This document shows, one piece after another, positions 265 to 12,608 of a DNA stretch of 12,608 bases. This stretch comes from Promethearchaeota archaeon (GTDB taxonomy: Archaea; Asgardarchaeota; Lokiarchaeia; Sigyniarchaeales; SOKP01), in NCBI GenBank assembly GCA_048940445.1, contig JBHLON010000065.1, forward strand, positions 1-12,608, in the 5' to 3' direction. The translations under genes were made by a program, and so were the position numbers. The notes beneath the pieces are model-generated. The model was not told the DNA's origin. It saw only the letters and a list, made by a program, of their open reading frames with translations, and did not search any database. Position 1 is the stretch's first letter. Every line of letters starts with the position of its first letter.

Positions 265-834
265 TTAATTTGGAATTAGGATTGTACCAGAAAGCCCATT
301 TATGCCATAATAGGGATCAATATCCCAAACTATACCAAAAAGCTTCATTCCTTCAAAATCTCCAGTACCTTGCAATACAATTTTACCCTCAAAAGGCCCA
401 ACCCCAGCCGTGCCCTTAGCAATAACAGGTCCATAGAAGGTTCCTACTAGTCCGTCCCATTCTATGTACATTGTTACTTTTCCAATGGTTATAAATTCAT
501 AAGTAGTTAGGTCCATTTTAACATGTAAATCTAATTCATTATGGCCTGTAAATTCAATTCCATCAATTGTTCCAAAAGTAACTGCTTCTTTGTAAACTTT
601 CATATGTAGAAACTTACCTTCCCCCCAAGATTCGTAAGGTAACCAAATTGTTTGGTGTTCTTCACCTTCAAAAGTTAATCTGGTCGATCTCTGATTACCT
701 GTATTAGCTGTCGCAAAAGTACATGCAAATCCAGTAAAAATAGTAATCATTAAGATTGTAAGGATCATTATTTTTGGAACCAATTTTGCACTTTTAATTT
801 TCTTCACCACTCTTTTTAGGTTTAAATTTATCAT
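265..834 (-). CDS. Exported or membrane-anchored beta-rich hypothetical protein, possibly AOC/dirigent/DUF3224-like beta-barrel
   Basis: 189-aa ORF. Basic N-region followed by a hydrophobic stretch (IMILTILMITIFTGFACTFATA), typical of a signal peptide or anchor. The mature part is Gly/Thr/aromatic beta-strand-like and contains GTGDFEGMKLFG. A TATA box lies 39-44 nt upstream. The fold call is tentative. Confidence 0.75.
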   Translation of the reverse strand: MINLNLKRVVKKIKSAKLVPKIMILTILMITIFTGFACTFATANTGNQRSTRLTFEGEEHQTIWLPYESWGEGKFLHMKVYKEAVTFGTIDGIEFTGHNELDLHVKMDLTTYEFITIGKVTMYIEWDGLVGTFYGPVIAKGTAGVGPFEGKIVLQGTGDFEGMKLFGIVWDIDPYYGINGLSGTILIPN

Positions 835-872
835 CTTTAAGATGATTAATTATTGGTTGAGATATACTTGCA

Positions 873-948
873 TTTATAGTTGAGCTTTCGATAATTTCTT
901 GGAAATTCCGAAAATAAATGAAAATTTTGAAAAATAGATATAAATAGA
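873..948. promoter_or_regulatory. Divergent promoter/operator element, copy A
   Basis: TTTATA(873)-gttgagc-TTTC-gataa-TTTC-ttggaaa-TTCC(906)-gaaaataaat-GAAA(920)-attttga-AAAATAGATATAAATAGA(931-948). Aligns without gaps to copies at 7955, 8647 and 10107. TATA-like boxes face outward at both ends. Confidence 0.8.
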
Positions 949-998
949 TATGTTCCCAAATTATACCTATAAAGCATATTATTTAGTCTTCATTGATC

Positions 999-2927
999 AT
1001 GGGAAAAATAAATTATCCCTCTGAAGAGATTCTTAACCCTTCGAAATTGAAAAGAAAGAATTATGACCATATCATTCTTTGGATGCTAACTAATAATGAA
1101 AGTTGTGAATGGGCTCATTTTGAGCAAAAACCCATTGAAATTCCTATATCTACAATCTCACGTCATTTAACAAAATTAATCATACAAGGTTTTATAGAGA
1201 AGTGTGCTAGAGGAAAATACAAAATAACTCCAGAAGGGAAAAAGAGATTTTATGAGTTATCACAAGAAAAAAGGAAGACACGAAGGTTAAGTTACCCCCC
1301 TGATGTAATCTTAAAACGAGGGAGGATTTATTCCCATTGGATTATATGGATGGTGTATAATAATGGCTTTTGTAAAATATCTGATTTTATTGAAGAACCA
1401 CTGTCTATAAGTCAATCATCTTTATCAAAAAGTCTAAATACATTAATTCAAAAAGGATTTATCGTCAAAGAAAATAAAAGATATATAATTACTCAATCAG
1501 GCAAATTAGAATATTCAAGGATTCTTCAAAATTATGATTTGGACAGACAAACAATTTTAGAAGAGGAAAGAAAACGAATTGATGAAATTACTGCAAAGAC
1601 AGCACAGTTTTTTGGTAAATTTAACGTAACTGATGATCAAGTCAAATTTAGATTTCTCAACAATGTGTTAAAATTAGATTATTCAATAGTAGATACAATC
1701 TTAAAAAATGATGAAGATTTTTATAAAATTTTACTCTTTATTTCAATTAATCATCCAAATTCTTATCCTGATTATCTGTCTCTTGATAATTTTTCGAGTT
1801 ATTATAATATTAAAAAGAGAATTCTTGATTATTGGGTGAATGAGATTATAGGAAGCAAGCTATATGATTTAAAGTTCTTCAAATTATACATCTCTCCGAA
1901 TAAACATTATTATTTTCATTCAGATGAAAAATTAGAGAAAATACTTCGAGCTGTTACTGAAGAACAAATTGCGACAAACAAATATTTAGAAAAATTTGGG
2001 AGAACTAGGAGTCTAAATTCCATTATTGACGATATTCTTGAAGAACTTTGCCAAACTACATTTAACAAGCATTTCAGGGAAGCATTGAGAGAATTCTTAC
2101 CAGAATACATAAAATATTTAGCATATAAAATTGAGACTAAAGAAGAATTGAAAGAAACTTATGATAAACTAGAAGGAATAATTTGGCAAAACATGACAGA
2201 GATTATGCAATCACAGAATTCTGAAACATTAGAATCTCAATACAAAGAAAAACTTAAAGAGATTGAAAAAGAAATCAACTTGACTCCGTTGAATTATGAA
2301 TTATATAATTCAAAAATACGAATTTTACTCTATTTCAACCAATACACCGATGTATTAAGGTTAATAGATAAAATGTTGAGATTATTTCCTGAAAAAGAAA
2401 TTGACTTGACGATAAAAAAGGCTTATACTCTTAAAAAAGAAAAAAATTTAGAAGGAGGATTAGAGATTATCGAAAAATTACTTGTAAAATATCCAGAAGA
2501 CAATTCTCTTCATAATTATAAAGCATATTGGTTATCCTATTTGGGTAGAAAACAAGAATCATTGAAGATTCTTCGCAAGCTCATCAAAAGTGAACCAGAA
2601 AAAGGAATTTATCATGATACATACGGAGAAATCTTAATATCCTTCAAAGAATATGAAAAAGCCATAAAAGAATTTCAAACCGCAATCAAAATAGACTCTA
2701 ATGACTGGTTTATCTACCAGACTTACATCAAAATTGGAATTTGTTATGCAGCACTCGAAAATGTTGAATTAGCAATTCAAAATCTAAAGATTGGAAAAGA
2801 GATGACAAATAAAATTATCAGCGATTTGGAATCAAAAAATAAGTGGTTAGCAATTGCAAACCTTTTTCTTGCAGAGATAGAAGAACAAGAATCTTTATCA
2901 TTTTCTAATTCATCTATTCAGAACTAG
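999..2927 (+). CDS. Tandem winged-helix + C-terminal TPR protein, putative transcriptional regulator (paralog 1)
   Basis: Two N-terminal wHTH repeats (IPISTISRHLTKLIIQGFIEK..GKYKITPEGK; ISQSSLSKSLNTLIQKGFIVK..RYIITQSGK) and C-terminal TPRs (e.g. YHDTYGEILISFKEYEKAIKEFQTAIKIDSND). ATG 999 is preferred over TTG 993 because MGKINYP aligns with MGSIIYP of the paralog and TATA-to-ATG spacing matches (60 vs 61 nt). Confidence 0.9.
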   Translation: MGKINYPSEEILNPSKLKRKNYDHIILWMLTNNESCEWAHFEQKPIEIPISTISRHLTKLIIQGFIEKCARGKYKITPEGKKRFYELSQEKRKTRRLSYPPDVILKRGRIYSHWIIWMVYNNGFCKISDFIEEPLSISQSSLSKSLNTLIQKGFIVKENKRYIITQSGKLEYSRILQNYDLDRQTILEEERKRIDEITAKTAQFFGKFNVTDDQVKFRFLNNVLKLDYSIVDTILKNDEDFYKILLFISINHPNSYPDYLSLDNFSSYYNIKKRILDYWVNEIIGSKLYDLKFFKLYISPNKHYYFHSDEKLEKILRAVTEEQIATNKYLEKFGRTRSLNSIIDDILEELCQTTFNKHFREALREFLPEYIKYLAYKIETKEELKETYDKLEGIIWQNMTEIMQSQNSETLESQYKEKLKEIEKEINLTPLNYELYNSKIRILLYFNQYTDVLRLIDKMLRLFPEKEIDLTIKKAYTLKKEKNLEGGLEIIEKLLVKYPEDNSLHNYKAYWLSYLGRKQESLKILRKLIKSEPEKGIYHDTYGEILISFKEYEKAIKEFQTAIKIDSNDWFIYQTYIKIGICYAALENVELAIQNLKIGKEMTNKIISDLESKNKWLAIANLFLAEIEEQESLSFSNSSIQN

Positions 2928-3468
2928 ATAAATTTTTATATTTATAGTATAATTTTTTAATAATTGCATTAAAAGCTTCTATTACTCCTTGTCCAGTTTT
3001 TGCAGACGTAATATAATGTCCAAGAAAACTATTATCTTTGACTAGCTTCTTAACCTCAATTTCATTTAAATCGTTTTGATTAACTAAATCAACTTTATTG
3101 GCAAATATAACAACAGGAATAATACCACAATACTTTGTTAATTCATTATACCAATTGGTTATATGCATGAAGCTATCTTTGCCTAAATCATTTTCTTCAA
3201 GACTGAATACAATAATAGCCGCCCTACTCTCTTTATAAAATAAAGGGTGCAAGAAATTAAAATCATCTTGACCTGCTATATCCCAAAATATTAAATTAAT
3301 TAGATCTCCATCAATTTCTTCATCATATGTTGAGAATTGAGCGCCTATAGTTTTAACATAATCTTTCTCAAACGTTCCCATTGTATATTTTTTAATTAAA
3401 GAAGTCTTACCAACCCCCCCATCACCGATGACGGATATCTTAAATTCAAATTCTTCTGATATGCTCAT
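2914..3468 (-). CDS. Ras-superfamily small GTPase, Rab-like (Asgard type)
   Basis: G1 GDGGVGKT, G2 Thr in YVKTIGAQF, G3 WDIAGQ, G4 NKVD, G5 TSAK. 184 aa with no C-terminal Cys prenylation motif. Confidence 0.95.
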   Translation of the reverse strand: MSISEEFEFKISVIGDGGVGKTSLIKKYTMGTFEKDYVKTIGAQFSTYDEEIDGDLINLIFWDIAGQDDFNFLHPLFYKESRAAIIVFSLEENDLGKDSFMHITNWYNELTKYCGIIPVVIFANKVDLVNQNDLNEIEVKKLVKDNSFLGHYITSAKTGQGVIEAFNAIIKKLYYKYKNLSSSE

Positions 3469-3593
3469 AAATCTCTTAATACTTTTTAGACTTATATTTC
3501 TACTTTAAATTAAAATTAACTCTAAACTAATATAAAATTTTACATAAATGTTATGATATTAAAATTGCACATTACAACAATTAAATCTAATGT

Positions 3594-5285
3594 TTAATAA
3601 AGAGTTTTTTGTATAAACGTTTTTTTAATAAGGGGTGCTAAAGAAGGAATATCTTTAAGACTAATTTTCCGGCTTTTTTCATAAAACTCTTCAAATTTCT
3701 TCCATATTTCAGTATGATCCTTCAATTCTTTTATAAAAGAGTTTATACGCTTTTGAGCTAAATATGATTGTCCCCTATATAAATAGAATAATAGAAATGG
3801 GAAAATAGATTTCATTAGAAGTGTATGGTTTCCAAAAGAAGCACGATCCAGCCCCTCAGAAAACATTTCGTTAATAAATGAATTAATCGCTGTAAAAAAA
3901 CCTCCAAAAAGATGGTCCTCAAACGATGTATCCTCAATAAAAGATTGAGTAAAAATGGGTAAGCCACCTTCTGATATGAGTAAAAGATAAATAGGCTCCT
4001 CCTCAATAAGTTCAGGAGGTTCTATTATTCGCTTTTTCATCATATCATCTATCTCTTCATTCAAGCCAGCGAGTTCCAAGCGTTCGGAGAAATTTACTTC
4101 TGAATCTTTAAATCTCCTCCAAATTTTTTCTTGTTTAAGTAATTTATCGTGCTCATTCGATATGTTTATAGCTAATTGTTTTAGCCCATAAGTTTCAGCA
4201 ATATCTTGAGCTTGGTTTAATAATCTTTTAGCTTCTTTTATATTAGAAGTTAATAATAATAATTTACCCTTCAAAATATAAGTCTCTATTAAAATTAGAT
4301 GCGCATTTTGATGGTTGGCAATATCTAATAATTCTTGGATATAACCTTGTATTTCGGTTGTTATTTCAAAATCATTAGTTATTTTTAGTTCTGTTAAACA
4401 TAAATCACATAAATTTATGATCGCATCAATCCTTTGCTCGCTATTTATTGAATTATTTAAGGCAATACTTTTAAAAAGATCTTCGGATTTGATACGATCT
4501 CTTGCTCTTAAACTAGACTTTAATACTAAAGCTTCAGTAAAAGTATAAATAACTCTATGTCGTTCAGTATCAAACTTTTTAATGTATTCGCGGAATAGCT
4601 CGAGATTAGCTTTTGCTTCGTTTATTTCTCCTTTACTAACATAAATCTCAATTAGATTGGAAAATGCGTGTACTAAAGTATATCTTTCATTAAGCTTAAT
4701 AGCATCTTTGGCATATAATATCGCTTTATCATATTCTTTCATATTACTATACATTTGGGCTATATTACTTAGACTCGAAGCCATAAATCTTTTGTTACTG
4801 GTGTTTTTTACAAGATCATAAGCTTTCTTATTCAATTCTAAAGTTTTTTGAACATCTCCTTTAAAATAAGTAATTCCTGACTTAGTTTTCACCAAAAAAC
4901 ATTCTCTCTCTCTCAAATCTATTTTTAAAGTTTCTTTAATTACGTTAAATAAATCTTGTGCTTGTTCAATTAAAGCTTCACTTTTATTTACATTTACCAT
5001 TATCATATAGGAATATGTTTGAATCATTAAAGCATCAAAAGATGAAAGTAAGTCTCCTAATTTTTGAGCCTTCTGAAATGCAATTTCAGCAGTTTCAATC
5101 GCTTTTAAGTAGTTTCCTACAACACGGAAAAGTTCAGCTTTAACAAGATCGCAAGAGAGTTGTTCTTTAAGAGATAAATCACTCTTTTGTTCCAATTTCG
5201 AAATAATTTGAAATACTTCCTTTTCCTTGCCTTCTTCTACAAGCTGAGTAACTTGAATCAATTCTTTAATTTCAGGATGGAACAT
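3594..5285 (-). CDS. TPR-repeat protein with C-terminal longin-like domain (paralog 1)
   Basis: 563 aa. Helical TPR-like repeats (ASSLSNIAQMYSNMKEYDKAILYAKDAIKL). C-terminal ~135 aa shows a beta-beta-alpha-beta-beta-beta-alpha-alpha pattern (LLLISEGGLPIFTQSF...LFGGFFTAINSFINEMF...LDRASFGNHTLLM...FLLFYLY). The longin assignment is by pattern only. Confidence 0.85.
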   Translation of the reverse strand: MFHPEIKELIQVTQLVEEGKEKEVFQIISKLEQKSDLSLKEQLSCDLVKAELFRVVGNYLKAIETAEIAFQKAQKLGDLLSSFDALMIQTYSYMIMVNVNKSEALIEQAQDLFNVIKETLKIDLRERECFLVKTKSGITYFKGDVQKTLELNKKAYDLVKNTSNKRFMASSLSNIAQMYSNMKEYDKAILYAKDAIKLNERYTLVHAFSNLIEIYVSKGEINEAKANLELFREYIKKFDTERHRVIYTFTEALVLKSSLRARDRIKSEDLFKSIALNNSINSEQRIDAIINLCDLCLTELKITNDFEITTEIQGYIQELLDIANHQNAHLILIETYILKGKLLLLTSNIKEAKRLLNQAQDIAETYGLKQLAINISNEHDKLLKQEKIWRRFKDSEVNFSERLELAGLNEEIDDMMKKRIIEPPELIEEEPIYLLLISEGGLPIFTQSFIEDTSFEDHLFGGFFTAINSFINEMFSEGLDRASFGNHTLLMKSIFPFLLFYLYRGQSYLAQKRINSFIKELKDHTEIWKKFEEFYEKSRKISLKDIPSLAPLIKKTFIQKTLY

Positions 5286-5313
5286 CTATTCATAAATCTT
5301 TTATAATTAATTA

Positions 5314-5361
5314 GATATCTTTTCTAATATAAGAAAAACTGCCCTTTAAATATATTGTAAA
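5314..5361 (-). promoter_or_regulatory. Conserved promoter of the TPR-longin gene 3594-5285
   Basis: 48-nt block matches 7282-7329 at 39/48 positions without gaps. Contains TTTAAATA (TATA-like) upstream of the start codon. Confidence 0.6.
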
Positions 5362-5468
5362 GCATATAAAAATCTAAATCTCAAAATTAAAATCGGTTAA
5401 GGATAAAAAAAAAAATTAACTTTACCTTTATTAATTATTTATATTTAACTCCTCTGTTTAATGTAAGA

Positions 5469-5515
5469 GATAATTCCATAGAACCTCCTATTTTTAATGG
5501 AATAATGAAAAAATA
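5469..5515. promoter_or_regulatory. Partial copy (E) of the TTCC/GGAA operator element
   Basis: gataa-TTCC(5474)-atagaac-CTCC(5485)-tatttttaat-GGAA(5499)-taatgaa-AAAATA. Same spacing as the other copies but lacks the left TTTATA box. Confidence 0.65.
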
Positions 5516-5542
5516 ATATTCAAAATTAATTCGAGTTATAAG

Positions 5543-7246
5543 CTATAAATCATTAATTACCATGTTTTGGGTTATAAAGACATCAGTTATTAAAGATTCA
5601 AGCAAGGGGATATCTTTTAAATGAATAAGCTTACTTAATTTAAAGGAGTTTAGCAAATTTTGCCAAATATCAACTCTAGTTTGTAATATATCAATAAAAT
5701 AATTCAATTTTTGAAGAGCATAATAGGAATTACCTTTAAATATATAGCAAATAAAAAAAGGTGGGAATGATTTCATAAGAAGTGTATAATCTCCAAAGAT
5801 TGCGCGATCTAATCCTTCAGAAAACATCTCCCTGATAAAGTAATCAATAGTGGCCAAAAAACCACCTAATAGATGAGATTCAAATACTTTATCCTCAATA
5901 AATGATTTTGAGAATAATGGGCTTCCTCCCTCTGAGAGTAGTAATAGAAATACAGGTTCTTCCTCTGAAAATTCTGGGATTTCGATGATTTGCTTTTTTA
6001 ACATATGCCTTAGTTGCTCATTCAAACCAGCAAGCTTCAAGCGTTCAGATATAGACGCTTGGGAAATTTTCAAATTCTCCCACATTTTAGTTTTTCTGAG
6101 TAATTCATCATGTTCGTAGGAAATTTTCATCGCTAATCGTTTCATACCATATGATTCTGCTATTGTTTGAGCCTGAGTCAAAAATATTTTGGCCTTGTTT
6201 ATATCTAAAGTTAAAAGTGAAAGCTTTGCTTGTAAAAGGTAAGTTTCGGCTAAATATAAATATAGATGCTGATTTTCAGCAATATCTAACAACTTTTGAA
6301 TATATGGATGTATCTCGTTTATTATCTTAGGGTCATTAGTTATCCGAAGTTCAGTTAGGTATAAGTCACATAAGTTTATAATCGCTTCAATCCGTAACTG
6401 ATTAAGTAATGTATTGTCCATAGCTAATTCTTTAAATATATCTTCCGCTTTAATACGATCTCTTGCTCGTAGACTTGATTTTAATATAAAAGCCTTTAAA
6501 GATTGATAATATCTTTTATATGGTTTAATATCAAATTTTTCTAAGTGTTCACGCAAATGATCTAAATAAAAGTTTGCTTCTTTAATATCTCCCTTACTAA
6601 CATTAATTTTAATTAAGGTACCTAACACAGCTACCAAGTATCGGTTATCTTTAACCTTAAAGGCTTTTTTTGCATATTTTATTGCTTTATCATAATCTTT
6701 CAAATGATAAAAGTGTTCAGCAATATTATTAAGGCTCCTAGAAATCAATGCTTTATTGCCTGTGTCTTTGGCTAGTTCATAAGCTTTTTTATTTAATTCA
6801 AGAGAAGTGTGAATATCTCCCTTAAAGCCGCAAATAATTGCCTTTATCCTTACTAAAAAAGATTCTCTTTCTCTTAGATCTATTGAAAGTGTTTCTTTAA
6901 TTAATTTAAATAAATCTTCTGCTTGTGTAATTAGATCTTCACTTTGAGTTATATTGACCGTCATAATATAGGAATAAGCCTGAAGGAGTAAGGCATCCAA
7001 AGATGATACTAAATCTCCTAGTTTCTGAAATTCATGAAATATATCCTTAGCAATTTCAATTGCGTCGTATAGTTTTCCTATCTCGCGTAATAGATTAGCT
7101 TTAACGAGTTTATATAAGAGTAATTCTTTAAGAGAAAGACCGTCTCCTTGTTCTAATTCTTCAACAATTTGTAAAGCTTCCTTTATTTTCCCCTCTTCTC
7201 TAAGTTGTTCTACTGAATTCAAACCTATAATCTCAGAATGAAACAT
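5543..7246 (-). CDS. TPR-repeat protein with C-terminal longin-like domain (paralog 2)
   Basis: 567 aa, full-length homolog of 3594-5285 (MFHSEI/MFHPEI, IDLRERE, LKSSLRARDRIK, IINLCDL, SEGLDRA). Confidence 0.85.
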   Translation of the reverse strand: MFHSEIIGLNSVEQLREEGKIKEALQIVEELEQGDGLSLKELLLYKLVKANLLREIGKLYDAIEIAKDIFHEFQKLGDLVSSLDALLLQAYSYIMTVNITQSEDLITQAEDLFKLIKETLSIDLRERESFLVRIKAIICGFKGDIHTSLELNKKAYELAKDTGNKALISRSLNNIAEHFYHLKDYDKAIKYAKKAFKVKDNRYLVAVLGTLIKINVSKGDIKEANFYLDHLREHLEKFDIKPYKRYYQSLKAFILKSSLRARDRIKAEDIFKELAMDNTLLNQLRIEAIINLCDLYLTELRITNDPKIINEIHPYIQKLLDIAENQHLYLYLAETYLLQAKLSLLTLDINKAKIFLTQAQTIAESYGMKRLAMKISYEHDELLRKTKMWENLKISQASISERLKLAGLNEQLRHMLKKQIIEIPEFSEEEPVFLLLLSEGGSPLFSKSFIEDKVFESHLLGGFLATIDYFIREMFSEGLDRAIFGDYTLLMKSFPPFFICYIFKGNSYYALQKLNYFIDILQTRVDIWQNLLNSFKLSKLIHLKDIPLLESLITDVFITQNMVINDL

Positions 7247-7281
7247 CTACTCAAAAAATGTTTTAAATATAGACAATTTAG

Positions 7282-7329
7282 GATATATTTACTAATATAA
7301 GCTAAATTGTGTTTTAAATATAATGTAAA
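7282..7329 (-). promoter_or_regulatory. Conserved promoter of the TPR-longin gene 5543-7246
   Basis: Ungapped match to 5314-5361, including CTAATATAAG and TTTAAATATA. Confidence 0.6.
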
Positions 7330-7473
7330 AAAGTTGCTTAGTAAGTTAATGTACCTTTGGACCGAATCAATATAAGAAAGGGCTTTATTAAATAAGTGTA
7401 TAATTAGTTCCAAAATACTTACATAAAAAATAAAAAGAAAAAAATAAATTAGAGAATTTTTAATTTAAGTTGA

Positions 7474-7869
7474 TTAGCTTCTCTGTTTGATATAAGCGAT
7501 AATTCCAAGCGTAAGAAGGGAAGCCTCTACGATCATAGCAAATACACCAAATAGAATCGTTGAGACTTCAAAAGAAGAGCCTAATACTGCTAATACAGCA
7601 ACTTCAATGATTAGTGTCGATATAAGCATAGTTAACAAAAATGCAAATGTCAATTTAATTTCTTCCCATTCCTTTTTGCGAAGCATTATAATTGCAAAAA
7701 GTGTAGCTACAAAACAGAGTCCCCCCCAAAATCTAGGGTAGTAGGGATTTGTAAACCCCTCAGGATTCATAGTTATATCATATAGAAATAAAAGGTTGAC
7801 TCCAAATATAAACCAAACAATCGCATCCACTATAAGTACGATTTTTGTAAATTTTTTAATTTCGGTCAT
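7474..7869 (-). CDS. Small 4-TM membrane protein (paralog 1)
   Basis: 131 aa with four hydrophobic segments. Shares MTE.KK.TKIVLI, FW and KK.WEEIKL with 8178-8570. Confidence 0.85.
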   Translation of the reverse strand: MTEIKKFTKIVLIVDAIVWFIFGVNLLFLYDITMNPEGFTNPYYPRFWGGLCFVATLFAIIMLRKKEWEEIKLTFAFLLTMLISTLIIEVAVLAVLGSSFEVSTILFGVFAMIVEASLLTLGIIAYIKQRS

Positions 7870-7933
7870 TTTTTTTATTCAACTCATCTTTTTGTTTATA
7901 GTTTCAATTTTATCACCAATATGGTAACCGATA

Positions 7934-8005
7934 AAATCTTGAGTAATTTTTGTATTTATAATTGAGTATCTGATAATTCTATGGAACTTCCTATTTTAAT
8001 TGGAA
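7934..8005 (-). promoter_or_regulatory. Promoter/operator element, copy B
   Basis: AAATCTTGAGTAAT(7934)-N7-TTTATA(7955)-attgagt-ATCT-gataa-TTCT-atggaac-TTCC(7988)-tattttaatt-GGAA(8002). Confidence 0.8.
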
Positions 8006-8177
8006 CTTATATATATATTATATCATTTAATTTTGATTTTTCAATATTTATTGATTATTTAACAGGTAGAAGAAATAAAAACCTGAAATTGTTTGAAGGA
8101 TTTCAATAAACACAAACCAAAAAGAAAAAAAAATATTTAGATTGTTTTTAGAATTTTATCAAAAACAAAAAGTGTGC

Positions 8178-8570
8178 TCATTGTTTAAACCAACTAATTA
8201 AACCGACAATTAAATTGAATGCCATAAGAGAAATATTAAATATCATATATATTAGAGGGGTTGCAGCTAAATTCAAAAGTGCTACTATACAGATATTCAT
8301 TATTAGTATCCCAATTATCCACATTATCATAATTTCGAAATAAAGTTTAATTTCTTCCCATTGCTTTTTAAAGTAGGCTAAAAATGAGGCGATGCTAAGA
8401 ACTAAAAGGCTTACTCCCAAACTCCAGAAAGTTACCGGATCATTATAAGGCCACTGCATTAATTGCCAGGCAAAAAAATTGGTTAGTACCAAGTAAGAAA
8501 ATGCAAAAAATAAACCTGCTATACCGTAATAAATCAACACAATTTTAGTTATTTTTTTCATTTCTGTCAT
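8178..8570 (-). CDS. Small 4-TM membrane protein (paralog 2)
   Basis: 130 aa with four hydrophobic segments. Homolog of 7474-7869. Confidence 0.85.
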   Translation of the reverse strand: MTEMKKITKIVLIYYGIAGLFFAFSYLVLTNFFAWQLMQWPYNDPVTFWSLGVSLLVLSIASFLAYFKKQWEEIKLYFEIMIMWIIGILIMNICIVALLNLAATPLIYMIFNISLMAFNLIVGLISWFKQ

Positions 8571-8625
8571 TTTGTTTCAATTATTTTTGTAAATTTTGGT
8601 TTAATCATCTTTCTGATGATTTCTT

Positions 8626-8720
8626 AAATCTTGAGTAATAAATCCCTTTATAATTGAGCATCCGATAGTTCCATGATAGTTCCGGCATTAAATGGAAATT
8701 TTAGAAAATAGATATATTTA
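8626..8720. promoter_or_regulatory. Promoter/operator element, copy C
   Basis: AAATCTTGAGTAAT(8626)-N7-TTTATA(8647)-attgagc-ATCC-gatag-TTCC-atgatag-TTCC(8680)-ggcattaaat-GGAA(8694)-attttag-AAAATAGATATATTTA(8705). Confidence 0.8.
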
Positions 8721-8842
8721 TGTGGGATTTTTGATAAATAGTAAAGAAATTCCGAATACGAGTTTTTTAAAAATTAGATGATATGATTACATTAATTTTA
8801 TATTACCTTTAATTCCACTTTTTTGGAGGAATTAATATAAAA

Positions 8843-9094
8843 TCAGGTAATAAAATTATGATATGATGATCCTTGAGTGTTTAACTTGTTGTTGTAATAG
8901 AAAACTCCTAAAATAGAAATTAGAGCAATGATTAAAATTAATATTTCTAAGTCATATCCTTCGATGGCAGGCTCTTCGCTATATTGGTTGAAAGAAATCA
9001 ATATACAGACCAAAAGAACGAAAAAAGCTACTACTATTACGAGTACAGTACAAATTAAGCTGAAGATAAACTGATAATTAATCCGTTTTTTCAT
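8843..9094 (-). CDS. Small 2-TM hairpin membrane protein
   Basis: 83 aa. Basic N-terminus (MKKR), two long hydrophobic segments separated by an acidic loop (QYSEEPAIEGYDLE). Confidence 0.65.
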   Translation of the reverse strand: MKKRINYQFIFSLICTVLVIVVAFFVLLVCILISFNQYSEEPAIEGYDLEILILIIALISILGVFYYNNKLNTQGSSYHNFIT

Positions 9095-9263
9095 TCTCTA
9101 CGATCTTAAGAGCTAATGATATTATAAATAAATAGATAAGGTACGATTTTTTACAGTACTTTTTTTAGGTATATATCTTCTAAAGAGAATAGTAGAGTTT
9201 GGAAATAAATTAAAATGAATAAAGAATGATTTTACTAATAAAAAAATTAATGTTGATAATTAT

Positions 9264-10040
9264 TTACCGTTTACCTTGTAAAATGTTTCTAATAATATTC
9301 TTTATTAAATCATTTTTATCTGAATTTATAGAAACCTTATTATCAGTTCTAGGTGAGAGGATGCCTAGTTCGATTAGATTTTTTATTCTATAATATGTCT
9401 TTGTTCTTTTAACATTCAATTCTTTGTAAAACTCAGTTTTATAAACAGATTCATTTTCAAGTAAAAAATTAACCATTAATCTATTCAGAGTGTCTCTCAA
9501 AATAAAATAAAAGATACCTTCTTCATCACTAATTTCAACAGGAAGAAAAATTAGATAATTCTTTATTTTCACTTTTTTGATTAAATTAAAACGAATTAAC
9601 TTATCTAAATGCCATCTTAAATGACCAATGCCTATTTTTTTCTTGTTATATTTCGATATTTTTTTTTTCAATAGGGAGAAATGAATTCCTTTGTAATTTT
9701 TAATTAAATGATAAATATAGGATCTAGTCTTATTATTTAACAGAGTAGTTTTTATAAATCGTGATCTATCAATTAAGAATCTTTTACTTATTAACATTTG
9801 AATAATTTCATCAAGGCCCACTCCAGAAATTTTTAATTCTTTCCTTGCCATATTATAAAGGAGCTCGGTGGTAATTAGTCTGTTTTCTTTCGTGAGTTCA
9901 ATTGCAACTTGTATCACTTTTTTAACGCTTGGATGATCTATTCCTAAGGAAGGAAGATGTTTTACTTTGGTTGAAAATTCTTCTTGATGAATTAATATTT
10001 TATTGAATTTGGAATCAACATCGAAAACTATTTGTTCCAT
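9264..10040 (-). CDS. Multi-HTH transcriptional regulator (COG3398-like tandem winged helix)
   Basis: LLNNKTRSYIYHLIKNYKGIHFSLL...IGHLRWHLDKLIRFNLI and a second HTH (RLMVNFLLENESVYKTEFYKELNVKRTKTYYRIKNLIELGIL), plus a probable N-terminal wHTH. Very basic protein. Confidence 0.8.
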   Translation of the reverse strand: MEQIVFDVDSKFNKILIHQEEFSTKVKHLPSLGIDHPSVKKVIQVAIELTKENRLITTELLYNMARKELKISGVGLDEIIQMLISKRFLIDRSRFIKTTLLNNKTRSYIYHLIKNYKGIHFSLLKKKISKYNKKKIGIGHLRWHLDKLIRFNLIKKVKIKNYLIFLPVEISDEEGIFYFILRDTLNRLMVNFLLENESVYKTEFYKELNVKRTKTYYRIKNLIELGILSPRTDNKVSINSDKNDLIKNIIRNILQGKR

Positions 10041-10106
10041 TTTTTTGTCTCTTTTTTTTTATTTTCATGCGATAAATTTATATTTAAATTTGTAGGGAAA
10101 ATTCCT

Positions 10107-10182
10107 TTTATAATTTCAGTTCCAAAACTTCCATGATAGTTCCGATATTTATTGGAGGTTCTATAAAATAGATATAAATAGA
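10107..10182. promoter_or_regulatory. Divergent promoter/operator element, copy D
   Basis: TTTATA(10107)-atttcag-TTCC-aaaac-TTCC-atgatag-TTCC(10140)-gatatttatt-GGAG(10154)-gttctat-AAAATAGATATAAATAGA(10165-10182). The last 18 nt are identical to 931-948. Confidence 0.8.
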
Positions 10183-10233
10183 AAACAAACTGATCTATAA
10201 TTTAGAAAATAATAAAATTAGTTTTCTCTAAAT

Positions 10234-12135
10234 ATGGGAAGTATAATTTATCCTCCAGAAAAATTTTATAGCCCATCTAAAATACAAAAGCCCAACTATG
10301 ATCACATTATACTTTGGCTGTTGTGTAATAACGATATATGTAAATGGGCGGATTTTCGTCAAGCACCAATTGAAATACCAACTGGCACTTTATCTAGACA
10401 TTTAGAGAAGTTAAAAGGTAAGGGTTTTGTAGAAAATTTTTCCAGAGGACATTATAAAGTGACTTCAAAGGGAAGAAAGCAATTTAATGAGATATCAAGT
10501 GCGAGGAAAAAGACACGTAAAATTAATTATCCTCCTGAAGTTATCTTAAAAGGTGGACGAAATTACACTCATTGGATTCTCTGGATGGTTTATAATAACA
10601 CCTATTGCAAAAGATCTGAATTCCTTGAGGAACCATTAAATATTAATCAATCTTCATTGTCAAAGAATCTGGGGTTGTTATTAGAACAAGGTTGTATAGA
10701 AAAAGTTGAGGGCAAATATGTTATTACCCGAGCAGGAAAATCTGAATATTCTAGAATGCTTCAAAATTATGATTTAGATAGACAAACAGTTTTAGAGGAG
10801 GAAAGCAAACGAATCGAAGAGATCACTAAAAAGACAGTTCAATTTTTCGAAGAGAATAACATTGAAGATGAAGAGATACAATATAGATTTTTAAATTACA
10901 TATTAACATTGGATTATGAAAAAGTAAAACCAATATTAAAAGAAGAAGAGACTTTTCGGAAAATTGTGCTTTTTCTCTCAATAAATCATCCAAATCAGTA
11001 TCCAAACTTTACTTCTTCTACAGATTTTTCTGAAACCTATAAAATTAAGAAAACTACATTGGATTATTATATTGATGAGATTTCAGGAGGTAAGATATAT
11101 CCTCTAAGATTTTTTAAACTAAGGCAGCCATCGGGAGGAGAATATTATTTTCAAACAGAAGGAGTACTTGAAAAAATGCTTCGAGTGATTACTGAGAATA
11201 AAATCACAAAAATTTCCTATTTGAATAAACTTTTTTCCAAACCAACGCAAGATTTAGATATAAACTCCATTATTAATGATATTGCTAACCAAAGTTGCGA
11301 ATTCCTATTTAATGAAGATTTGAAGTCATCAGTAAGAGAGTTTTTATCCGATTATATTAAATATTTAGCATATAACATTGAGAAGAAAAAAGAATTAATA
11401 GAAACTTATGATAAATTAGAAGGAATTATTTGGCAGAATATAACAAACATTTTTCAAACGCAACTTTATGAAAATTTAGGAAATCTGTATGATGAACAGA
11501 TTCAAGAGATTGATAAACAAATTGAATCTAACCCAGAAAATCTTGATTTATATTATTTGAAAGTAAGAACATTGACTTATTTTAATTATTACAATGATGC
11601 TGTGAAGTTATTGGATGAAATGTTAGAACTTTTTCCTGAGAGTGAAAAAGATATTAAAATATTAAAAGCTGCTATTCTTAGAAGAAAACAAGATGTTAAA
11701 GCAGGATTAGAAATTATAGAATCCTTAATTGAAAAATATCCCGAAGACAATGACCTTCTTAGTTATAAAGCCTATTGGCTTCAGTTTTTAGATAAGAAGG
11801 AGGAAGCCATAAAAATAATTCAAAAAGTCATAAAAAATGAACCTGAAAGCGGAATTTATCATGATATATATGGTGAAATTTTAATGTATTTTGAAGATTA
11901 TAAAGAAGCAGCTAAAAAATTTGTAAAATCAATGGTTTTGGGGGCTCATGAGTGGTATATTTTCCAGACGTATATTAAACTAGGAATTTGTTATAAAACA
12001 ACCGGAGAGCATGATTTAGCAGTAGAGAATCTCAAAAGAGGGATAGCTCTAACAAAGAAAAATGTAAAAGATCCTGAAACAAAAGAAAAATGGCTTTCAA
12101 TTGCTAATCTTTTTCTTTCAGAACTAAAGCAATAA
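10234..12135 (+). CDS. Tandem winged-helix + C-terminal TPR protein, putative transcriptional regulator (paralog 2)
   Basis: 633 aa, full-length homolog of 999-2927 (NYDHIILW, WMVYNN, LQNYDLDRQT, ETYDKLEGIIWQN, YKAYWL, QTYIK.GICY). Confidence 0.9.
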   Translation: MGSIIYPPEKFYSPSKIQKPNYDHIILWLLCNNDICKWADFRQAPIEIPTGTLSRHLEKLKGKGFVENFSRGHYKVTSKGRKQFNEISSARKKTRKINYPPEVILKGGRNYTHWILWMVYNNTYCKRSEFLEEPLNINQSSLSKNLGLLLEQGCIEKVEGKYVITRAGKSEYSRMLQNYDLDRQTVLEEESKRIEEITKKTVQFFEENNIEDEEIQYRFLNYILTLDYEKVKPILKEEETFRKIVLFLSINHPNQYPNFTSSTDFSETYKIKKTTLDYYIDEISGGKIYPLRFFKLRQPSGGEYYFQTEGVLEKMLRVITENKITKISYLNKLFSKPTQDLDINSIINDIANQSCEFLFNEDLKSSVREFLSDYIKYLAYNIEKKKELIETYDKLEGIIWQNITNIFQTQLYENLGNLYDEQIQEIDKQIESNPENLDLYYLKVRTLTYFNYYNDAVKLLDEMLELFPESEKDIKILKAAILRRKQDVKAGLEIIESLIEKYPEDNDLLSYKAYWLQFLDKKEEAIKIIQKVIKNEPESGIYHDIYGEILMYFEDYKEAAKKFVKSMVLGAHEWYIFQTYIKLGICYKTTGEHDLAVENLKRGIALTKKNVKDPETKEKWLSIANLFLSELKQ

Positions 12136-12138
12136 AAT

Positions 12139-12608
12139 CTAAACATTAAGCGGAACTGTTTTGTTAATAAAAGTCTCATCTATGAGAGATTCTAAAAGAG
12201 GAACGTCTGTTATTTGGATTTTCCTATTAGCCCGGTAGAATTTTTCAAACAAATCCCATATTTCTTTATGATTCTTAAGTTCGTTTACAAACGATTTTAT
12301 TCGCTTCTGAGCAGAATATGATTGCCCCTCATATACATAACACATAATAAATGTGAAATTGTGTCCATAAGGAGTGTATGTTTACCAAAAGAAGCACGAT
12401 CAAGCCCTTCAGAAAACTTTTCATTAATAAAGGAATTAATTGCAGTAAAAAATCCTCCAAATAAGTGGTCTTCAAAAGTTTTATCTTCAATAAAGGAGTG
12501 AGAGAAAAAAGGGATCCCTCCCTCAGACACGATTAAAAGAAGTACAGGTTGCTCATCTGTAAGTTTTGGATCTTCTATTATTCGTCTCTTTATCATATAA
12601 TCCATCTG
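12139..12608 (-). pseudogene. 3' part of a third TPR-longin paralog with a 1-nt frameshift near 12353 (pseudogene or sequencing error); 5' end lies outside the window
   Basis: ORFs 12297-12605 and 12139-12345 match consecutive parts of the C-terminal domain of 3594-5285. Restoring one base (TCA CA TTT to TCA CCA TTT) gives MDTISPFIMCYVYEGQSY, which aligns without gaps to MKSFPPFFICYIFKGNSY and MKSIFPFLLFYLYRGQSY. Confidence 0.8.

Follow-up and report, generated by a model that had tools for sequence, protein, structure and literature searches.

The window analysed here is the entire 12.6-kb contig C43 (JBHLON010000065.1) of a Promethearchaeota archaeon genome (GCA_048940445.1; assembly of 3.64 Mb, 139 contigs, 30% G+C). 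A repeat recurs between its genes, and we consider it likely that this repeat is a bidirectional promoter-operator cassette of approximately 100-120 bp. It holds an array of short boxes, bound most likely by the product of the adjacent gene, a regulator with winged helices and TPR repeats.

A recurring cassette in the window and in the genome

The element was originally proposed from a spaced TTCC/GGAA pattern. This pattern, with at most 3 mismatches, matches the window only at 873, 7955, 8647 and 10107, always on the plus strand, and was found in 0 of 200 dinucleotide shuffles. The four sites belong to copies A, B, C and D. The 12-mer AAAATAGATATA was also found where it had been reported, at 931, 8705 and 10165, exactly 58 nt past TTTATA in copies A, C and D, with a chance expectation of 0.07 matches. 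A repeat search gives one family of four ungapped 93-nt copies at 850, 7932, 8624 and 10084 with 70-74% identity, and the ungapped alignment of these copies spans 93-105 nt. In a nhmmer search of the whole 3.64-Mb genome, the four window copies have E-values of 1e-16 to 1e-24, and three diverged copies are added on other contigs, at C47:85925 (plus strand), C44:50184 (minus) and C133:3353 (plus). Because the pattern is absent from the shuffles, and because of the genome-wide profile E-values, the recurring cassette is real, far beyond chance. Every copy of this genome sits between open reading frames (ORFs). The copies also keep a fixed orientation and distance to the gene starts, in line with the proposed cis-regulatory cassette upstream of minus-strand genes.

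Copy A (850..949, plus strand) is a full cassette, placed between the minus-strand gene 265-834 and the plus-strand regulator gene 993/999-2927, of regulator clade I. Its leftward TATA occupies 872-878, its boxes 886-928, and a rightward block resembling a transcription factor B recognition element (BRE) with TATA occupies 931-947. The boxes are of type I, with GGAA-A-TTCC as the second unit. Copy D (10084..10183, plus) is also full, between the HTH-like gene 9264-10040 (minus), which encodes 258 amino acids (aa), and the regulator gene 10234-12135 (plus), of clade II. It has a leftward TATA at 10106-10112, type II boxes at 10120-10162 and a rightward BRE/TATA-like block at 10165-10181.

Copies B and C lie upstream of genes for proteins with four transmembrane segments (4-TM). 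Copy B (7932..8031, plus) precedes the gene 7474-7869 (minus), with the leftward TATA at 7954-7960 and boxes of the clade I kind at 7968-8010. Its rightward promoter block is degenerate and no plus-strand gene comes after it. Copy C (8624..8723, plus) precedes the gene 8178-8570 (minus), with the leftward TATA at 8646-8652 and type II boxes at 8660-8702, where GATAGTTCC occurs twice, 11 bp apart. The rightward block of this copy, at 8705-8721, is vestigial and no plus-strand gene follows.

The region past the vestigial block of copy C (8741-8842) contains no plus-strand ORF. An inverted repeat (TTCCAC ... TGGAGGAA region, around 8806-8830) lies just beyond the stop of the ORF 8843-9094, and may be a terminator or a leftover transcript.

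Anatomy and conservation of the cassette

A model based on sequence only was built from seven copies and used to search other genomes. In total, 40 loci were fetched and 61 cassette copies were aligned; columns below refer to this alignment. Nearly all copies have a gene leaving leftwards, with its start 17-96 nt from column 1. As for the right side, 27 of the 61 copies have a winged-helix/TPR gene of 612-644 aa (once 826 aa) that starts 42-54 nt right of column 99, mostly 50-52, and two further copies were matched in reverse beside such a gene.

The word TATAAAT is present on both sides, each time in the direction of the gene, on the minus strand at columns 29 to 23 and on the plus strand at 90-96, at a distance of approximately 67 bp from each other. 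An A-rich BRE-like word stands before the rightward TATAAAT, and together they make up a block at columns 82-96, about 50 nt ahead of the start codon. The space between the TATA boxes holds an array (columns 32-79) of GRWA-N-TTYC units, which begin at columns 41, 52 and 71 and are joined by a partial unit at 32. Its outer words, TTCC at 46-49 and GGAA at 71-74, share an axis of symmetry with the two TATA boxes.

In terms of anatomy, this revises the original prediction, which had noted isolated TTCC words instead of GRWA-N-TTYC units. Two parts had been missed. The AAAATAGATATA block is likely the regulator gene's own BRE/TATA, decaying in copies without that gene, and on its left the cassette extends into a palindrome located where transcription is predicted to begin.

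The boxes are more conserved than the spacers, as had been claimed. The best box columns reach 1-2.4 bits, against 0.06-0.32 in the spacer at columns 63-69, and the TATA columns are likewise high in information content. In the 32 copies without a regulator gene, the rightward BRE/TATA has 0.25-0.48 bits, compared with 1.27-1.44 in the 27 full copies. In these regulator-less copies the leftward TATA is retained at 1.28 bits, as are the third unit at 0.96 and the two central ones at 0.97-1.18, and the spacer has approximately 0.28 bits in both sets. Since the boxes are kept in copies without the regulator gene, they would serve the leftward promoter, and not only the regulator's own. The ungapped alignment of copies B and C has 70% identity, against 31% for their 4-TM proteins, and the constraint on the cassette exceeds that on the neighbouring genes.

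The statement that the flanking genes are unrelated has to be restricted. The two plus-strand regulators (993-2927 and 10234-12135) are paralogs with 54% aa identity, and the two 4-TM proteins (7474-7869 and 8178-8570) are paralogs with 31%. The copies do descend from duplicated or rearranged units of regulator, cassette and target. In this respect the claim that duplication alone is no explanation was too broad, but the selective conservation argues for function, as the claim implied.

A palindrome at the predicted transcription start

Approximately 40 of the 61 copies have an ATCATC-N5-GATGAT type palindrome on the strand of the target gene, beginning 31 nt downstream of the T that opens the leftward TATAAAT. 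Its first base is also the one predicted to be transcribed first, a purine following T. In 34 of the 61 copies the stem is perfect over 6 or more pairs, compared with 11% of shuffles. The arms vary among subfamilies yet remain complementary, and in the mRNA sense there are 12 G-T pairs against 3 A-C. The palindrome could be either a 5'-terminal mRNA hairpin or a second operator at the start site.

Within the window, the palindrome is on the minus strand in copy A at 830..846 (ATCATC-N5-GATGAT type), in copy B at 7911..7929 (imperfect, with variant arms and a G-T pair) and in copy C at 8603..8621 (perfect 7-bp arms and a 5-nt centre). It is absent from copy D. The ATG at 834 of the ORF 265-834 falls inside the copy A palindrome, and so translation probably begins at the GTG at 810 or 807 instead, matching the ortholog in the related genome G017. 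A start at either GTG would remove the odd 17-nt leader of this gene.

Spread across the genus and link to regulator clades

The cassette was found in 23 of the 36 other genomes of the genus, with 1-8 copies in each, often several within a few kb. Its positions are syntenic between species, and in relatives a 4-TM gene is found divergent from the regulator gene. Outside the genus there were only weak matches (L056-L063), without regulator or target homologs nearby, and for this reason these were treated as chance. As far as the search model can see, the cassette family appears to be restricted to the genus.

The proposed tie between the cassette and the winged-helix/TPR genes was borne out: 27 of the 61 copies adjoin such a gene, and the cassette accompanies nearly every gene of clades I and II but not those of other clades. 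Among 40 genomes of the genus, it lies directly upstream of nearly all clade II genes (at least 59% identity to 10234-12135) and of most clade I genes (53-56% identity to 10234-12135, of the 993-2927 type). Some clade I genes have diverged cassettes that are visible only with filters off. The clade with 46-51% identity, which includes the C75 paralog of this genome, has no cassette upstream in these genomes, even with filters off, and a clade of approximately 830 aa has a third, diverged version. Of the 13 cassette-free genomes, 10 are without clades I and II, one has the gene cut by a contig end, and two have a gene whose upstream region gives a weak match or none.

The genome under study has six regulator paralog loci, with the cassette only at the two in the window. 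No recognisable cassette was found in the upstream regions of the C75, C37, C39 and C110 paralogs, although the C37 one may hold a very diverged copy. The paralogs at C37:3781-6285 and C39:8247-10715 of this genome (G000) are longer, about 830-850 aa, and align in two blocks with extra sequence between query residues of approximately 410 and 530. They belong to the clade in which relatives have the third dialect.

The boxes come in dialects. Along the regulator tree, clade I promoters have GGAA-A-TTCC as the second unit, and clade II promoters have GATAGTTYC twice, 11 bp apart. The tree of the 4-TM genes does not follow box type. In genomes G004 and G030, the 4-TM genes have 99% DNA identity from approximately 10 nt before the ATG, where the break is sharp. 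G004 has a type II cassette with a clade II regulator, G030 has type I with clade I, and these two regulators are 58% identical. This pattern suggests that the target gene alone was recently recombined or transferred. Comparing the two loci (L085, G004:C294, and L086, G030:C149), the upstream DNA and the regulator gene drop to 58-73% identity.

A second recombinant is a chimeric regulator in G028 (L088:3223-5127, G028:C78). Its residues 1-95, with the first winged helix, are of clade I (81-91% identity), the remainder is of clade II (88-100% identity to G016 over most segments), and its cassette is of type I. Together, the swap between G004 and G030 and the G028 chimera indicate that the cassette travels with the regulator N-terminus, with the target genes being exchangeable. 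The coupling of dialect and clade fits a putative cognate pair of regulator and operator. No other DNA-binding gene was found among the recurrent neighbours of the cassette.

A partial copy (P) had also been reported at 5469. It is real, being orthologous to an intact cassette of a relative, but it is a truncated relic without a TATA in register. P (5469..5513, plus strand) has only columns 41 to approximately 85, with a genome-wide nhmmer E-value of 0.16. It is about 90% identical to the right half of the intact cassette in G017 (L064:9200-9290), which heads a gene for a 234-aa signal-peptide protein, and the downstream flank aligns too. The left half of P is replaced by a duplicate of 7434-7507, with the leftward TATA and the target gene gone. 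This duplicate arose with a tandem duplication of TPR genes in the window. The duplication brought along a piece of the 4-TM gene 3' end (5405-5478 resembles 7434-7507) and truncated a cassette.

Predicted target genes and candidate regulators

As for the genes on the left, 4-TM proteins are found under 14 copies, and two families of 210-267 aa without Pfam matches under 10 and 8 copies. Large NosD/beta-helix proteins are under 6 copies and relatives of 265-834 under 3. Single cases include LVIVD repeats, a SBP_bac_5 solute-binding protein and LRR. Nearly all of these proteins are polytopic or have a basic stretch followed by a hydrophobic segment at the N-terminus. The signal-peptide or membrane nature of the predicted targets points to an envelope regulon.

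Both regulators of the window match Pfam HTH_34, HTH_45, MarR and TPR_2 above cut-offs. NCBIfam gives weak matches of the Sso10a, Sta1 and Lrs14 types to the second winged helix, below curated cut-offs. The AlphaFold model of 10234-12135 has winged helices at residues 22-88, 111-176 and 213-307, long helices at 311-432 and TPR at 437-632, with a mean predicted local distance difference test score of 81-84. Similarly, 993-2927 has tandem winged helices and a third one, long helices and C-terminal TPR repeats.

The Foldseek results of the full regulator model are dominated by TPR proteins. For the N-terminal model, the structural neighbours are all weak: RPC62, SarS, MarR proteins, a PhiH1-repressor-like protein and Sso10a. 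A sequence profile search of the PDB gives only weak matches, to the PhiH1-repressor-like protein and AspA. Going by the models, the regulators are candidate cognate binders with bona fide DNA-binding winged helices.

Proposed mechanism and alternative explanations

In the mechanism that we propose, the box array would be occupied by a sequence-specific DNA-binding protein that controls how the leftward target is transcribed. In full copies, this protein would do likewise for the regulator gene (autoregulation). The most likely binder would be the regulator encoded next door, with the TPR half as its sensor or partner-binding part, and the two clades (993-2927 and 10234-12135) would use two box dialects. 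We lean towards activation, because the boxes sit just upstream of both TATA boxes, or towards dual control with the start-site palindrome as a repressing or RNA-stabilising part. We infer the TATA/BRE assignments, the identity of the binder and the sign of control.

A more far-reaching version can be put forward as speculation, and we would not expect it to hold in full. Each winged-helix/TPR clade would read its own dialect, with at least three of them (GGAA-A-TTCC, GATAGTTYC twice, and the third in the clade of approximately 830 aa). The result would be several insulated regulons in a Loki-type Asgard genus, each sensing a ligand or partner and switching a set of cell-surface proteins. Targets would be swapped by recombination just before the start codon, and the 5'-terminal mRNA hairpin would be a second control layer.

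Several observations weigh against the cassette being a promoter-operator read by the adjacent regulator. G015 and G029 have a homolog with 54-56% identity and only a weak upstream match or none, G025 has the cassette with no clade I or II regulator in its assembly, and the copies on C44, C47 and C133 of this genome are away from any regulator gene. The coupling of dialect and clade, as well as both recombinants, can be equally explained by physical linkage and shared ancestry. Furthermore, the model used to find the copies was based on the left half and the boxes, which inflates the apparent conservation of these parts in regulator-less copies.

The promoters themselves call for similar care. 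The TATA boxes were assigned from the arrangement of the genes and from general rules for archaea. In a strand-asymmetry count of 7-mers upstream of 2498 long ORFs, TATA words were equally common in both orientations, and thus the orientation of the TATA boxes rests on gene arrangement. There is also a second TATA-like word 17-25 nt past the rightward TATA. Since this word lies in each of the clade-specific blocks, either the start site is uncertain or there are two promoters. These conserved blocks (953-976 and 10182-10212 in the window) are found between the rightward TATA and the regulator start codon. The upstream regions of 10 tRNAs, found without intron handling, gave no clear motif for a local promoter consensus, and a scan for sigma-70 promoters and terminators was set aside as inapplicable to archaea.

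The box array could instead be bound by another factor, such as a global winged-helix protein, a specialised TFB/TBP pair or a chromatin protein, the winged-helix/TPR gene being merely one of its targets. This would suit the three regulator-less copies just mentioned and the case of G025, along with clusters in relatives that have no regulator gene on the contig (G011:C24 and G013:C40). Nevertheless, we consider it unlikely, as the cassette and clades I/II co-occur across genomes, the dialects track the regulator clade down to the first winged helix of the G028 chimera, and no other DNA-binding gene recurs as a neighbour. A duplication relic, in which upstream DNA was copied together with the regulator and 4-TM genes and holds no operator beyond core promoters, is a good deal less probable. 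Column conservation is uneven, with boxes far above the spacer, and the ungapped register was kept while the proteins fell to 31-54% identity. In regulator-less copies the boxes persist and the rightward promoter decays, and the family is retained across at least 23 species. What such a relic does explain is that A and D flank paralogous regulators, that B and C flank paralogous 4-TM genes, and that P is a dead fragment; given the divergent 4-TM/regulator pairs of relatives, B and C can descend from such pairs.

The inverted repeat TTCCAY...RTGGAA could also, read from the plus strand, form a hairpin in a small structured RNA or a structure in single-strand DNA. Columns 46-51 pair with 69-74 in 84% of cells, the pair 48-72 is distributed as CG 27, UA 10, UG 22 and CA 1, and the covariation score was beaten by only 3 of 500 shuffles. 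This covariation is marginal, however, and the excess over shuffles is within the range for related sequences without structure. RNAalifold gives no consensus structure, the four single copies on both strands fold no better than shuffles (z -1.4 to +0.7), and an Rfam scan has no match for the cassette, its sole match in the window lying elsewhere and being due to chance. In addition, RNA pairing does not account for the 11-bp direct repeats formed by the words of the inverted repeat, and since the cassette lies between two divergent TATA boxes, neither predicted transcript contains the repeat. On folding, Rfam and position, we rejected RNA as the main explanation, and find it very improbable. 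We give still less credence to a miniature mobile element carrying an outward promoter. The several dispersed, pseudo-symmetric copies and the different target genes under the same cassette in different genomes are what one would expect from it. Against it stand the low number of copies (1-8 per genome), the fixed orientation and distance to flanking start codons and the syntenic positions between species. Neither terminal inverted repeats nor target-site duplications appeared in the repeat search, and no transposase neighbours were found. Precisely bounded empty sites with duplicated target sites were not seen in close relatives either.

Relation to known systems

Divergent, autoregulated pairs of regulator and target with a shared intergenic operator are known from bacterial MarR- and LysR-type loci, and from the Lrp-type BarR in Sulfolobus. 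As in those loci, regulator and target diverge here from a short intergenic region with repeated boxes, co-inherited with the regulator, and the element co-occurs and co-varies with the lineage of the adjacent, divergent regulator. The present case differs in its 630-aa regulator, with three winged helices, a long helical stalk and TPR repeats. It also differs in having an array of 3-4 units between two TATA boxes, and regulator-less copies that extend the predicted regulon.

In archaea, sites immediately upstream of BRE/TATA usually activate by recruiting TBP/TFB. Upstream activating sites are known for Ptr2 in Methanocaldococcus, and for TrmBL1 and SurR when bound upstream of BRE/TATA. The cassette boxes are similarly placed immediately upstream of the inferred BRE/TATA of both promoters. 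As with archaeal operators and upstream sites, the cassette is non-coding, with fixed distance and orientation, boxes conserved above spacers, and its register kept. The motif is another one, and the protein architecture is unrelated beyond the winged helix.

The operator of NrpR in Methanococcus maripaludis, GGAA-N6-TTCC (PMC2723118), is also a site of GGAA/TTCC half-sites for an archaeal winged-helix regulator, sometimes in two copies. In contrast, the cassette has the spacings GGAA-N1-TTCC, TTCC-N2-GGAA, TTCC-N10-GGAA and TTCC-N21-GGAA, and never N6. Its boxes are upstream of TATA, whereas NrpR sites are over or just after the transcription start, and its neighbouring regulator is not NrpR-like by Pfam. 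From these differences in spacing and position, the cassette is not an NrpR operator.

As for the architecture of the protein, TPR sensor halves are also part of other HTH or winged-helix regulators, namely the RRNPP quorum-sensing regulators and MalT. A further one is the SARP-type AfsR (PMC10936776). In these proteins, as in the window regulators, the DNA-binding domain is N-terminal and a C-terminal TPR domain could accommodate a peptide, a ligand or a partner protein, with control of nearby genes (predicted here). The window regulators have a tandem MarR/PhiH1-repressor/Sso10a-like winged helix instead of an XRE-type HTH or an OmpR-type domain. They are without a NOD/ATPase domain, and their host is an Asgard archaeon. 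A RRNPP-type system was considered for its TPR and rejected, with winged helices in place of an XRE-type HTH and no signalling peptide gene identified.

SarS of Staphylococcus aureus (PDB 1p4x) likewise has two MarR-like winged helices in a single chain, and is a precedent for contacting two adjacent half-sites. Its Foldseek E-value is just 0.011, and so we take it as a lead and not as a family assignment.

Asgard archaea are hard to grow and have no genetics. Our literature searches found no description of an Asgard promoter or regulon motif, or of a winged-helix/TPR regulator, and no sequence-defined regulator-operator pair or regulon for this group turned up in the literature that could be searched. 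The cassette is a concrete, compact and testable cis-element, with two candidate cognate regulators that have soluble N-terminal domains. Among the predicted targets, secreted and membrane proteins are enriched, and these could be relevant to surface remodelling in these cells. The cassettes are also candidate regulated promoters for future genetic tools. If each clade does read its own dialect, the cassettes would provide the first regulator-operator code defined for Asgard archaea, along with ready-made orthogonal switchable promoters. The mechanism is conventional, with a regulator divergent from its target and an operator between them; the example is new and the principle is not. Its value thus lies in the example and in its evolutionary modularity.

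Other genes of the contig

From ORF calls and Pfam, the gene 265-834 (minus) encodes a 189-aa signal-peptide protein, followed by the clade I regulator gene 993/999-2927 (plus) and a Ras-family GTPase gene at 2914-3468 (minus). Two paralogous TPR protein genes (3594-5285 and 5543-7246, minus) precede the 4-TM genes (7474-7869 and 8178-8570, minus). An 83-aa ORF was called at 8843-9094, the 258-aa protein of 9264-10040 (minus) is weakly HTH-like, and the clade II regulator gene 10234-12135 (plus) was assigned in the same way. The two TPR genes form a tandem duplication (3594-7510) with a period of approximately 1961 nt and 55% aa identity, and a third copy of the TPR gene (12154-12608) runs past the contig end.

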